Origin: a virus
Lineage: Duplodnaviria; Heunggongvirae; Uroviricota; Caudoviricetes
Direction: 5' to 3' (one strand)
IMG/VR virus record: IMGVR_UViG_2657245081_000005
DNA: 25,385 nt
Both the position numbers and the translations under genes were made by a program. Under the pieces are notes generated by a model. The model made no database searches and had not been told where the DNA came from. It saw nothing but the letters and a program-made list of their open reading frames with translations. This document shows positions 13,189 through 17,955 of this stretch, piece by piece; positions within the stretch are counted from its first letter, which is position 1; every line of letters begins with the position of its first letter.

Positions 13189-14350
13189 AGCCACTCGATT
13201 TAGCGTGGCCGCCTGGCGTTATGCTTCGCAGGATTACAGGACATTCAGCGACCATCTTTACGAAAATGATAAACACTATCATCAGAGTGATTATAATGAT
13301 TTTTATGATATTGGCAGAAAAAATAGCCTTTCTGCCAATATTATGCAACCTTTATCCAATAATCTGGGAAATGTATCATTAAGTGCGCTTTGGCGGAATT
13401 ACTGGGGGCGAAGTGGAAATGCTAAAGATTACCAATTCAGTTACTCCAATAACTGGCAACACATTAGTTATACTTTCTCTGCCAGCCAATCTTATGATGA
13501 AAATAATAAAGAAGAGGAGCGTTTTAATCTGTTTATCTCCATTCCTTTCTACTGGGGGGATGATATTGCCAAAACACGTCACCAAATTAACTTATCGAAT
13601 TCGACCTCATTTTCCAAAGATGGCTATTCCTCCAACAATACTGGAATTACTGGCATAGCCGGTGAACATGATCAGTTAAATTATGGTATATATGTTAATC
13701 AGCAACAACAAAATAATGATACCTCGCTTGGTACGAATTTAAGCTGGAGAACTCCCATCGCCATAATAGATGGCAGCTATAGTCATTCTAAAAACGCCTG
13801 GCAAAGTGGTGGAAGTATTAGTAGTGGATTAGTTGTCTGGTCCGGTGGTATTAATATCACTAACCAGTTATCCGATACATTTGCAATTCTGGATGCGCCT
13901 GGATTAGAAGGCGCGCATATTAATGGACAAAAATACAACCGAACAAACAGCAAAGGCCAGGTTGTTTACGACCCGATTATACCTCATCGTGAAAACCATC
14001 TGGTACTTGATATAGCAAACAGTGAAAGTGAAACAGAATTGCAGGGCAATCGTCAAATTATTGCGCCTTACCGTGGAGCAGTTTCTTATGTGCAGTTTAC
14101 AACTGACCAACGTAAGCCCTGGTATATACAGGCACTGCGTCCCGATGGTTCGCCATTAACCTTTGGCTATGACGTACTGGATCTCCAGGAAAACAATATT
14201 GGAGTCGTTGGCCAGGGTAGTCGCCTTTTTATTCGCGTAGATGAAATTCCAACTGGCATAAAAGTTGCTCTCAATGATGAACAGAATTTATTCTGTACTA
14301 TTACTTTTCAACACGTTATCGATGAAAACAAAACATATATATGCCAGTAA
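13189..14350 (+). CDS. Chaperone-usher fimbrial usher protein, C-terminal about 385 aa (5' end lost at N-run)
   Basis: ...RFSVAAWRYASQDYRTFSDHLYEND...ILDAPGLEGAHINGQKYNRTNSKGQVVYDPIIPHRENHLVLD...NRQIIAPYRGAVSYVQFTTDQRKPWYIQALRPDGSPLTFGYDVLD...; usher C-terminal plug/CTD pattern. Confidence 0.8.
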
Positions 14351-14362
14351 AAGGAGTTTACT

Positions 14363-14611
14363 ATGAAGTGGCTTTTATTAATCACCTTGAGTCTATATTC
14401 TTTTATTGTGCAAAGTGCTCCCTGTGCATTGACCAATGTCGGGGAACAACGTGGAACATATATACTCAAGCCACTGAGTATGAAAGGTAATCTCACCGCC
14501 GAAAAAATTGAAAACACCGGAAATATCATTGAGTGTGCAGACTTACAAGAGACGACCAACGCCATTAAAGTTCATTTTTTAACACAGAACGCTTTAAGGT
14601 TTAAGGTTTAA
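14363..14611 (+). CDS. Fimbrial adhesin-like protein, N-terminal ORF with signal peptide (82 aa); probably the 5' half of a split gene
   Basis: AAGGAG RBS; MKWLLLITLSLYSFIVQSAPCALTNVGEQRG...; TAA stop lies inside a TTTAAGG tandem repeat. Confidence 0.55.
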   Translation: MKWLLLITLSLYSFIVQSAPCALTNVGEQRGTYILKPLSMKGNLTAEKIENTGNIIECADLQETTNAIKVHFLTQNALRFKV

Positions 14612-14613
14612 AG
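14593..14613. repeat. 7-bp tandem repeat (TTTAAGG x2 plus TTTAAAG) at the junction of the two adhesin ORFs
   Basis: TTTAAGGTTTAAGGTTTAAAG; stop codons of both relevant frames lie within it. Confidence 0.8.
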
Positions 14614-14705
14614 TCGGAAGTCGTCATTATATTATTAATTTCCCCTTTGAATCTGACGGTAAAAAAATAGCGCTTCCAGGGAAGTCATCTTATAATTTAG
14701 AAGAA

Positions 14706-15329
14706 ATGCTATCTGCGATAAATTTCACCATTCCATACTCTATCGCATCTGTATCAGATAGTTCCAACACCGCAGATATTTTTCCAGGAACTCCTTTTCC
14801 TTTGTTGTTCGAAATTGAAGTGAGTTCATGTACAGGGAATAATACTAATTGTAATAGCGCCCGCTTTAATTTTAATTTAAATACTATTTTACAGGTAAAT
14901 TTAATGACCTGTGGTTTTGAAGATCAATCCATCGACACTGGACGATTTGTACTGTCTCGTATCAATAATGAAAATTATCAGTTTCATCATATAAGATTTG
15001 ACTGCATCCAGGGCGAGCAAGGTGAATTAGTTTTTGAACCCAGTGATGTTGAATATTACTTTGAACCAGTGACGATACAGGAGTCAGGAACCAGCATATT
15101 AAAAAATGAGTTAGAAAACAGTGAGGACGGTGCGGGTCAAGTAGGCTTTCAACTCTCCAATGATGGTACGAATGAAATCCAGTATGGTAAAAGCAATTAC
15201 TACTCTTTTCAGCATCCCCATGAAGGAAGTAATCAGATTCCTCTGTTTATTCGCCCGCGTACATATGGAAACAATGTCTCAAGCGGGCAAATAATGAGCC
15301 GAGTCAAAATCGTGGTAATGTACAACTAA
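14706..15329 (+). CDS. Fimbrial adhesin/subunit-like protein, C-terminal ORF (207 aa) without its own signal peptide
   Basis: Ends ...SGQIMSRVKIVVMYN* (alternating hydrophobic C-terminal strand typical of chaperone-usher subunits); frame is +1 relative to the upstream ORF and open back to 14598. Confidence 0.55.
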   Translation: MLSAINFTIPYSIASVSDSSNTADIFPGTPFPLLFEIEVSSCTGNNTNCNSARFNFNLNTILQVNLMTCGFEDQSIDTGRFVLSRINNENYQFHHIRFDCIQGEQGELVFEPSDVEYYFEPVTIQESGTSILKNELENSEDGAGQVGFQLSNDGTNEIQYGKSNYYSFQHPHEGSNQIPLFIRPRTYGNNVSSGQIMSRVKIVVMYN

Positions 15330-15366
15330 TCTATCTCCCCCACCTTAACTTTGGGGGAGCTGCCGA

Positions 15367-16272
15367 TTAACGTGCTGCTGGACTAAAAAGCGCAGAATAA
15401 TCCGTATTGCAGATTCGCTGTACCGCCGGGTGCTGAATCATCCGCTCAGCAAAAATAGCATGATACTCTTCCATCACATTCTCGACGCGACCAATTTCTA
15501 CGACAGTTTTATCGGCATAAAAGTCATATGCATAAAGCGTTGGGGCAACGAAGATTGCATTGTGCATCGCACCAAAAGCTTTCATCAACGCGGCATCATC
15601 AAACTCGCCGAGGATTTCTACGTTTAATCCCTGGGAGTTAAACCAGTTAAGCAATTTACGCCCTAACATTGAACGTCGTCCAGGAATCAAAAGCCGCCGG
15701 TCTTCCAGACAAGCCGGGAACGGTTTTTCCGGTGGTGGATTTGTACACCAGAAGCTCACGCCACATTCGCCAATTCTCACGGAGAACAGGCCTTCCTGCT
15801 GCGTAGAATCTATCGGACAGTCGGAAATGATCATATCCAGTTTATGCTGGCTTAATTGCTCCAGCAGCATTTCGTGGGTGGATTCGAAGCAGCGAAGATG
15901 AATCGGTTCGCCTTCTACTACTGCAGCATTCAGCACGCTACTGACCAGGCGTTTGGAAAGTGCATCAGCCACGCCAACGTCAAACAATAAATTGGATTCT
16001 TTGCGATAGTTCACGATATCCAGCATTTCCTGGCTTAAGGTGAACATTTTATCGGCATAGCGATAGACCAGCTCTCCCAGCTCGCTGGGTTCGAGACCAC
16101 GTCCCTTGCGCTTAAATAATTTGCCTTGCAGGCGCTCTTCCAGCGCCCGAATCTGTCCGGTAATGGTTTGTGGTGTTAAATAAAGCGCCTCCGCTGCGCC
16201 AACCACAGAACCTTCTTTATAAACATGCCAGAAGTAATACAAGTGGTTGTAATTGATATGAGACATGCTCAT
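15367..16272 (-). CDS. nhaR: LysR-family transcriptional activator NhaR
   Basis: [77 protein letters not shown]...; 301 aa from the MSMSH start. Confidence 0.9.
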
Positions 16273-16331
16273 TTCTCTCCCTGATAACAATGAAAAGGGA
16301 GCCGTTTATGGCTCCCCGGTAAACCGTCCTG

Positions 16332-17498
16332 TCACACTGATGGACGCAAACGAACGCGTAACCAGCTGTATCCAATTACCGCCGAAGAGATAGAACCGAC
16401 CAGGATACCGAGTTTCGCCCAGTTAATCAGTTCTGGATCTACGCTACCAAAGGCCAGGCTGGCAATAAAGATAGACATAGTAAAACCGATACCGCACAGG
16501 ATCCCCACCGCCATAATTTGCTGATAAGTCGTTCCCTCAGGCAGATGCGCCAGTTTCAAACGCAGCGCCAACCAGCAGAACAGACTAATCCCCAGCGGTT
16601 TGCCAATCAGCAAGCCAGCGATGATCCCCAATGGCAGAATGGAGGTCAAGCCATCCAGCGTGACACCTTGCAGTGAAACGCCAGCATTAGCAAATGCAAA
16701 CAGCGGTAAAATCAGATACGCCACCCACGGGTGCAACACATGCTCCAGTCGCTTCGCTGGAGAACGCCCATGCTTCTCTTTCAAAGGAATAAAGAAGCCG
16801 ACAATTACCCCCGCCAGGGTTGCGTGAACCCCCGATTTCAACACCGCAGTCCACAACACTACGCCAACCAGAATATAGACGCCCGTGCGGCGTACACCAC
16901 ACAGATTCAATACCGCGAGTACCGCAATTGCTACAGCCGCGACGCCAAGAGAGGCCATCGATAAGTCATTAGTGTAGAACAATGCGATGATAATGATGGC
17001 CCCAAGATCGTCGATAATAGCCAGAGCCATCAAAAAGATCTTCAGTGCTAACGGAACACGACTTCCCAACAGCGCCAGCACACCAAGTGCAAAGGCAATG
17101 TCAGTAGCCGCCGGGATCGCCCACCCTTCGCGGGTAATCGGATCGGCATAGTTAAAGGCCAGATAGAGTAATGCCGGCACAATCATCCCACCAATAGCGG
17201 CGATAACTGGAAATGCGGCCTGGCGTAAGCTGGCTAGCGATCCTTGCATCAGTTCACGTTTAACTTCCAGACCGACTAACAGGAAAAATACCGCCATCAG
17301 CGCGTCATTTATCCATAACAGCATGTTTTTGTTGATTTCGAGTGAACCAACCCGGAGCTGAACCGGCGTCTCCAGAAAGTCGTGATACCATCCACTGGTT
17401 GCGCCGCTGTTGGCCATCATCATCGCCAGGATAGCGGCAATGATAAGAATAATGCCTCCCGAGGCATCACTGCTAAAGAATCGATGCAGATGTTTCAC
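16332..17498 (-). CDS. nhaA: Na+/H+ antiporter NhaA
   Basis: 388-aa [86 protein letters not shown]... Confidence 0.92.
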
Positions 17499-17955
17499 TT
17501 TTTATTTCTCTTTCAGGTGAATAGATCGTTTTTACTATTTTACCCCGCACGAATCATCGTTAAAATCAGATTATAGTGTAGGAATAACTCGTTTTTTACG
17601 AGCAATTAAAGGATTTGCGCCATCAGCGGTGAGATGAGTTTTTGACGGCTGTAAGCGCTAACGGGTGACCCTAAGCCCTGATAATCATAGCTTAAGGTGA
17701 GGATTTCTGAGGGATTAATTAGGAAAAGTAATAATTAATTTCTTGTCAGTCGGCGTTATTTGTTAGGACAATATTTCAAAAATAATCCAGCTTGTCGTCA
17801 ATAATTGCGATAAAGAGATAAATTAAAGTTAAATAATTAAATCATTAAAAAATTACGCCACAAAAATGCGAGGCGTCTTCAGGATTAGAATCGATAAAAC
17901 AGAATGGGTTAAAGAGAGCGATATAATAGCGGCGGGGGCTTGAGGNNNNNNNNNN

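Follow-up and report, generated by a model that had tools for sequence, protein, structure and literature searches.

Is the fimbrial sequence that runs tail-to-tail into nhaR in this DNA a working accessory adhesin operon with a temporarily broken tip gene, or what is left of a dead one? It lies in a 25,385-base stretch filed as a viral record (IMG/VR IMGVR_UViG_2657245081_000005; hereafter the window), which is a chain of small draft-assembly contigs: 49 runs of exactly 10 N separate 50 pieces, which range from 59 to 4,757 bp. The piece in question, positions 13189-17945, is by far the longest at 4,757 bp, and carries the 3′ end of a fimbrial usher gene and an adhesin gene on the plus strand, converging on nhaR and nhaA on the minus strand. 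We favor, with a probability of roughly 90%, the reading that two functional housekeeping genes, nhaA and nhaR, stand here tail-to-tail with the dead remnant of a fimbrial operon, in neutral decay at a known variable locus. The principal features of the block are these:

13190-14350, plus strand: 3′ fragment of a Yeh-like γ4 usher gene, 386 codons and stop (Pfam Usher and PapC_C, NCBIfam NF011763)
14363-15329, plus strand: putative tip-adhesin pseudogene, 967 bp (reading frames and alignment to intact alleles)
15330-15366, no strand: spacer between the convergent stop codons, exactly 37 bp
15367-16266, minus strand: nhaR, intact, LysR-type activator of nhaA (NF008284 equivalog, Pfam HTH_1 and LysR_substrate)
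16332-17498, minus strand: nhaA, intact, 388-residue Na+/H+ antiporter (TIGR00773, Pfam Na_H_antiport_1)

This layout had been described in a first-pass annotation made from the letters alone, and its block limits, adhesin stop at 15329, nhaR stop at 15367, and 37-bp gap are all exact. Matches to Pfam and NCBIfam families likewise bear out its description of a chaperone-usher type usher 3′ end and an adhesin convergent on nhaR-nhaA. What had been called an adhesin operon, however, proves to be only the dead 3′ remnant of one: the nearest genomes have lost 373 usher codons along with the genes for major subunit and chaperone.

The usher fragment aligns to positions 260-549 of the 549-position Pfam Usher profile, with PapC_C in addition, and to positions 433-826 of the 826 in NF011763, where its 685 bits fall below the cut-off of 933 because the protein is partial. 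It represents the C-terminal 47% of an usher, with the latter half of the barrel plus the C-terminal domains, and a Pfam search finds in it neither PapC_N, the N-terminal domain, nor the first part of the β-barrel. The window therefore holds no full-length usher of the kind found in Escherichia coli O157:H7 Sakai, which has PapC_N, Usher, and PapC_C. The fragment begins at the contig end. In E. coli ATCC 8739, whose usher remnant is annotated as N-terminally incomplete, the gene starts 170 bp upstream of the point that corresponds to the contig start.

The 4,757-bp block differs from ATCC 8739 by 1 mismatch, as it does from dozens of other closed genomes, and on this near-identity we assign it to a draft E. 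coli genome of the ATCC 8739 (Crooks) clade. Alignment of ATCC 8739 with Sakai reveals a clean 2,442-bp deletion, corresponding to Sakai L002 5632-8073, with a 3-bp overlap at the junction (ATCC 8739 L001 7831-7833). Lost with it are the genes for the major subunit and the chaperone, as well as usher codons 1-373. The gene order annotated in ATCC 8739 by the Prokaryotic Genome Annotation Pipeline (PGAP) is insertion sequence IS1, espX1 (frameshifted), usher (incomplete), fimbrial family protein (frameshifted), nhaR, and nhaA. Neither a chaperone, nor a major pilin, nor the 5′ part of the usher occurs in the contig or in the other 49 pieces of the window, and the PapD-like chaperone and major pilin required for pilus assembly are thus missing here, as they are deleted in ATCC 8739-type genomes. 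From the near-identical closed genomes and the absence of the missing genes among the other 49 pieces, we infer that the strain behind the window carries the same deletion.

The second lesion is visible within the window itself. The adhesin gene starts 12 bases downstream of the usher and is split into two open reading frames (ORFs), 14363-14611 and 14706-15329, whereas intact alleles are 960 bp long and encode 319 amino acids; PGAP flags the ATCC 8739 copy as frameshifted. Three sites in the gene bear on its fate:

14593-14606, plus strand: inactivating 7-bp tandem duplication, TTTAAGG TTTAAGG, followed by an imperfect TTTAAAG (comparison with intact alleles)
14661-14667, plus strand: A7 tract, unchanged in the window; A8 in O157:H7 Sakai, an independent +1 frameshift
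14502-14507, plus strand: A6 tract, unchanged in the window; A5 in the B1 strain ECC-1470, a third independent frameshift (-1)

The duplication shifts the frame at codon 81 and brings a TAA at 14609-14611 into frame, so that the suspected frame disruption of the tip gene is real and the gene has no uninterrupted frame; removal of one TTTAAGG copy restores the 960-bp, 319-codon ORF. The duplicated allele is found in 50-63 of the 3,648 genomes that carry the gene, with a single unit in ~3,580, and this frequency agrees with the number of genomes, 62, that match the entire block at >=99% identity, which suggests a recent lesion specific to one clade. Sakai lacks the 7-bp duplication, and its exact adhesin allele occurs in 233 genomes. 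Intactness was settled from closed genomes, as the protein database search gave mostly fragments; an intact 960-bp ORF accompanies a full-length usher in VR50 and WP2-W18-ESBL-10. That the frame was lost independently in three lineages accords with relaxed selection on the gene.

In chaperone-usher systems, folding and donor-strand complementation of the subunits depend on a PapD-like chaperone, and their recruitment depends on the N-terminal domain of the usher. Having no promoter-proximal major subunit, no chaperone, and no usher N-terminal domain, the remnant cannot build a pilus. We propose that an old 2,442-bp deletion, marked by a 3-bp microhomology, cost the operon its major subunit and chaperone together with the first 373 usher codons, and that a more recent, clade-specific 7-bp duplication, the step seen directly in the window, then broke the adhesin frame. 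The fimbrial sequences would then be nonfunctional pseudogene remnants in ordinary reductive decay, with only nhaA and nhaR at work.

Upstream of the remnant in the ATCC 8739 genome (L001 5326-6093 and 6164-7584), the type III effector gene espX1 is itself frameshifted and an IS1 sits between espX1 and rpsT, which points to decay of the whole island in this clade. Genomes that share the identical junction differ from one another in the truncated usher (comparisons with L006 and L008), with synonymous divergence (dS) of 0.04-0.09 and a ratio of nonsynonymous to synonymous divergence (dN/dS) of ~0.1-0.26. This implies that the deletion allele has recombined with, or moved among, diverged backgrounds.

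The operon to which the fragment belonged can be recognized by comparison with Sakai. Over the Sakai region that includes ECs_0022 (usher 3′ half, adhesin, nhaR, and nhaA), the block has 98.1% DNA identity, and NF011763 is the best NCBIfam model for both the window fragment and the full Sakai usher. The complete Sakai cluster lies between nhaR and rpsT, together with espX1. It comprises a major subunit (ECs_0024; best NCBIfam match the YehD model, score below cut-off), a PapD-type chaperone (ECs_0023; best match the StcB model, also below cut-off), an 816-residue usher (ECs_0022), and an adhesin pseudogene (ECs_0019), followed by espX1 and rpsT. YehB of K-12 and the Sakai usher share 58% identity from end to end, in accord with the name "Yeh-like."

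ECs0022/Z0022 has been classified as an usher of the γ4 "Yeh-like" type, a type recorded as present in phylogroups D, B1, E, and some A, and as absent from all B2 strains, K-12, and ATCC 8739 (Wurpel et al. 2013, PLoS One 8:e52835, PMC3559732, Table S2); "yeh-like" is also named among the Sakai fimbrial clusters (PMC7098969). ATCC 8739 was scored as lacking the type because the definition used in PMC3559732 needs both chaperone and usher. The window usher groups with ECs0022/Z0022, and the location between nhaR and rpsT also agrees, with the nhaR adjacency seen in the window and the rpsT side only in ATCC 8739 and Sakai. The pair of chaperone and usher is lacking, and what survives is a relic of this type rather than an operon. 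By these similarities, we identify the fimbrial genes of the window as the remains of the already catalogued γ4 Yeh-like operon. The biological weight of the feature is small, as this is textbook reductive decay of an accessory fimbrial operon. A literature search joining nhaR with fimbrial terms gave nothing relevant.

How the site is occupied across the species bears on whether the operon could instead be a nearly functional insertion. Counts were made over 5,426 complete E. coli genomes, as follows:

whole 4.76-kb block in one place: 3,462 of 5,426 genomes
5′ part of the operon (the segment deleted in ATCC 8739) present: 1,203 of 5,426
exact ATCC 8739-type deletion junction: 2,428 of 5,426
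CFT073-type empty nhaR-rpsT site (B2): ~557 of 5,426
K-12-type junction: at most 558 of 5,426 (an upper bound)

The site had been taken to vary between strains, and it does, with full, deleted, empty, and IS1A-bearing states among these genomes. The arrangement seen in the window is not universal in E. coli, as comparison with K-12 and CFT073 among others makes clear, yet the deletion remnant is the commonest state of this known variable site. The genomes that represent the species Shigella flexneri and E. coli have the identical junction as well. Apart from two apparently mis-binned contigs of metagenome-assembled genomes (MAGs), E. coli and S. flexneri were the only hits of the species-representative scan, which needs exact 8-residue words and is uninformative for E. 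albertii, E. fergusonii, and similar species. The two MAG contigs, L011 (JAEWTL010000002.1, labeled "Bacillota bacterium") and L012 (CASFSC010000151.1, labeled "uncultured Alistipes sp."), carry the fimbrial locus at 98-99% DNA identity, one with a full usher and the other with the deletion junction, and L012 reaches through nhaR and nhaA; both look like mis-binned E. coli contigs.

In non-B2 E. coli, the operon and the effector gene espX1 form an AT-rich island of ~6.9 kb between nhaR and rpsT, with a GC content of 37% against 52% for nhaA, which is compatible with ancient horizontal acquisition. In CFT073, nhaR and rpsT are 95 bp apart, with ~52 nonhomologous bp in place of the ~6.9 kb. The first-pass annotation had placed an IS1 downstream of nhaR in K-12, and an IS1A is indeed found there; the idea that K-12 represents the unoccupied state fails. 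K-12 homology to the window covers nhaA, nhaR, the 37-bp spacer, and one short stretch of the island:

15192-15329, plus strand: 3′-terminal 138 bp of the adhesin gene; K-12 MG1655 retains nothing else of the island, and there the stretch directly adjoins IS1A

Homology stops at K-12 L003 5796 and IS1A begins at 5797, with no target-site duplication around the element. An IS1A that abuts 138 bp of adhesin without a target duplication indicates that K-12 once had the island and now carries a derived, IS1A-associated deletion. The IS1 between rpsT and espX1 in ATCC 8739 differs in being a simple insertion with an 8-bp duplication; it is 94.7% identical to the K-12 IS1A. In the nhaR-IS1A-rpsT arrangement of MG1655, nhaA-nhaR is 97.8% identical to the window, and the rest of the island is lost. 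The K-12 arrangement would thus reflect a separate, later loss of the same island; the IS1 downstream of its nhaR marks a deletion rather than an empty attachment site, and the true empty site is that of the B2 strains.

These comparisons weigh heavily against a near-functional accessory adhesin operon, inserted at a variable point and carrying a reversible tip frameshift, with K-12 as the unoccupied, IS1-marked site. Variation of the nhaR-side site between strains, an AT-rich island that fits horizontal acquisition, a clean empty site in B2 strains, and a short tandem duplication, in principle reversible, would all be expected under such an account. Nevertheless, reversion of the frame would give no pilus in genomes like the nearest ones, which are without major subunit, chaperone, and 373 usher codons; K-12, with its 138 bp of adhesin and no target duplication, is not an unoccupied site; and the duplicated allele, fixed within one small clade and nearly missing outside it, does not behave like a switching tract. 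We consider this account very unlikely. A phase-variable repeat switch (contingency locus) was likewise rejected as a description of the 7-bp unit, given that the duplication is confined to those 50-63 genomes and that longer arrays of the unit were not seen.

Some observations do weigh against a dead remnant as reconstructed here. The contig starts 170 bp downstream of the deletion junction, and the junction itself is not inside the window. The breaks at both ends of the contig stay unexplained by repeats: sequence immediately past the right end has a single copy in E. coli genomes (median 1 place per genome), and so does the deletion-junction probe on the left, where the ~110 bp directly before the contig start were left unprobed. 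An intact adhesin ORF stands beside the truncated usher in 23AR1101, and pairwise dN/dS for the adhesin is low (0.1-0.5), which alone could suggest residual selection.

The last two points also speak for a different possibility, namely that an orphan tip adhesin or the C-terminal usher fragment is kept for a function, for example export through the paralogous Yeh machinery, with the frameshifts acting as on/off switches. The ORF in 23AR1101, a truncated-operon genome, has the full 319 codons; Nei-Gojobori estimates over repaired alleles span 0.09-0.52 and are low even between deletion-bearing lineages; the Yeh usher is 58% identical to that of Sakai; and 2 of the 3 adhesin frameshifts lie in homopolymer runs. 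As a control, however, the usher remnant, which is unable to function, gives equally low values of 0.06-0.26 between the same genomes. The adhesin signal therefore reflects inherited or recombined polymorphism and not selection after the deletion, and we rejected it as a sign of function. Moreover, the operon promoter and the genes upstream of the adhesin gene are gone, clades have fixed at least three frameshifts independently, and between this adhesin and that of Yeh no sequence similarity is detectable. Retention for function is, on this balance, highly improbable, and its more specific form, in which the adhesin is still expressed and displayed through the Yeh machinery in some deletion genomes and switched off by lineage-specific frameshifts in others, is extremely so.

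If the gene at 14363-15329 is dead in the window, its intact relatives still allow its former role to be considered. No Pfam or NCBIfam family matches the adhesin above threshold, and its C-terminal half gives a weak match to Pfam Fimbrial, at 19.6 bits below the cut-off of 25.6. It has no sequence match in the PDB and no detectable similarity to K-12 YehA (BLASTP E = 0.15). A full HMMER search through 1.8 billion cluster representatives yielded no more than a dozen or so full-length relatives (21-42% identity). An AlphaFold2 model of an intact homolog (P0001, 91% identical) predicts a two-domain β-protein with a mean predicted local distance difference test score (pLDDT) of 82.7. The best PDB matches of this model are full-length tip adhesins, FimH, FocH, CfaE, CsuE, PapG, CupB6, and LpfD, with E values of 2e-9 to 1e-5. 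A signal peptide and, at the C terminus, a pilin-like motif are present in P0001, giving the layout of signal peptide, N-terminal receptor-binding domain, and C-terminal pilin domain expected of such proteins. The likeness to FimH, FocH, PapG, CfaE, and LpfD consists of these two β-rich domains, the signal peptide, and the pilin-like C terminus; sequence identity to known tip adhesins is 8-13%, and whole-chain template modeling scores (TM-scores) are ~0.3, low because the domain orientation differs. Gene position, signal peptide, and predicted fold together support the designation of the gene as a putative tip adhesin, with a pseudogene copy in the window. The nhaR-side adhesin, intact for instance in VR50, represents a structurally and functionally uncharacterized family.

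The name of this family needs care. The K-12 Yeh fimbriae (yehDCBA; Stc in Salmonella) share the four-gene layout of major subunit, chaperone, usher, and tip adhesin, but lie at another chromosomal site, and YehA is not detectably similar to the nhaR-side adhesin. A recent study (PMC12778044, Sci Adv 2026) describes "Yeh-like (Yhl)" as a sister pilus of Yeh in O157 Sakai and reports a structure of "Sakai YhlD," PDB 8V9V. The 8V9V chain corresponds to residues 21-191 of Sakai ECs_2914 (L016 1248-2279; E = 2.4e-111), the adhesin at the canonical yeh locus, which is 45% identical to K-12 YehA in the pilin domain only. This excludes 8V9V as a structure of the nhaR-side adhesin; its identification with ECs_1277, a type 3-like adhesin, was also ruled out. 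Since the chain is ECs_2914, the structure and binding data of PMC12778044 do not apply to the window gene. The nhaR-side adhesin contains no tryptophan after residue 3 and lacks the Trp142 described in that study. The fold search with P0001 showed no similarity to the Yeh/"Yhl" adhesins with an α-helical flap (PDB 9N4G and 8V9V), neither of which is among its top 50 Foldseek matches in the PDB, where the YehD / 8V9V receptor-binding domains are also absent. The name "Yhl/Yeh-like" now covers two different adhesins in the literature.

On the other side of the spacer, NhaA and NhaR are each full-length and above the curated equivalog cut-offs of their hidden Markov models. NhaR scores 602 bits against NF008284 (cut-off 219), and NhaA scores 661 bits against TIGR00773 (cut-off 254), with E = 6.5e-153 to Pfam Na_H_antiport_1. 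The stop codon of nhaR occupies 15367-15369 on the minus strand; its start is placed at 16266 by PGAP and at 16272 by the K-12 annotation, and the mechanical ORF extends to a TTG at 16290. The spacer contains an 8-bp G/C-rich hairpin (15335-15359) without a U-tail, and a fold of 15320-15380 has -19.4 kcal/mol with z = -3.9. This hairpin might serve as a bidirectional terminator; the terminator scan did not call it. Promoter and terminator scans of the block gave counts within shuffle expectation, and Rfam has no match anywhere in it at E <= 0.1.

The nhaA-nhaR pair is also variable in its own right. Between CFT073 (B2; L004 6607-8972) and K-12 (L003 3244-5611) or Sakai (L002 912-3279), it has ~89% identity, whereas its flanks on the dnaJ side and the rpsT-ileS side are 96-98% identical in the same comparison. 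This suggests an old allelic replacement by recombination across nhaAR, one that goes together with whether or not a strain has the fimbrial island. CFT073 further carries a second island of ~4 kb (L004 2608-6606; an OmpK-like protein, a sulfatase, and a hypothetical protein) between mokC and nhaA. This second island lies near the point where the contig of the window ends, which makes both sides of nhaAR variable points.

The fragmented state of the window invites the further question of whether usher truncation and gene order could be artefacts of a chimeric or mis-joined contig. The ends of the contig are as follows:

13179-13188, no strand: ten-N spacer at the left contig end, an assembly join and not biology
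17499-17945, no strand: upstream region of nhaA, intergenic toward sokC/mokC, in which the contig ends (comparison with ATCC 8739)
17946-17955, no strand: ten-N spacer at the right contig end, an assembly join

Short contigs with ten-N joins would make such an error conceivable, as would the location of the sole mismatch to ATCC 8739 (17937, G for T) just 9 bp from the right contig end, where it may be an end-of-contig assembly error. Throughout its 4,757 bp, however, the block is collinear and >99.9% identical with dozens of closed genomes, in which the same gene order is annotated, and only the exact left end of the usher is an effect of assembly. The chance that the arrangement is an artefact is therefore next to nil. 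None of the other 49 pieces matches sequence neighboring the contig.

Joins do mislead at the level of gene calls. The mechanical ORF list contains a 535-residue ORF at 12743-14350 that reads through spacers into unrelated contigs and is an artefact; ORF calls that cross the ten-N spacers of the window, of which the list has many, are chimeric. Several translations from the window resemble lambdoid tail-fiber and insertion-sequence fragments. At 12045-12102, the last 58-59 bp of a 1,596-bp piece (10507-12102) are identical to an IS1 terminus, with the contig stopping at the IS1 boundary.

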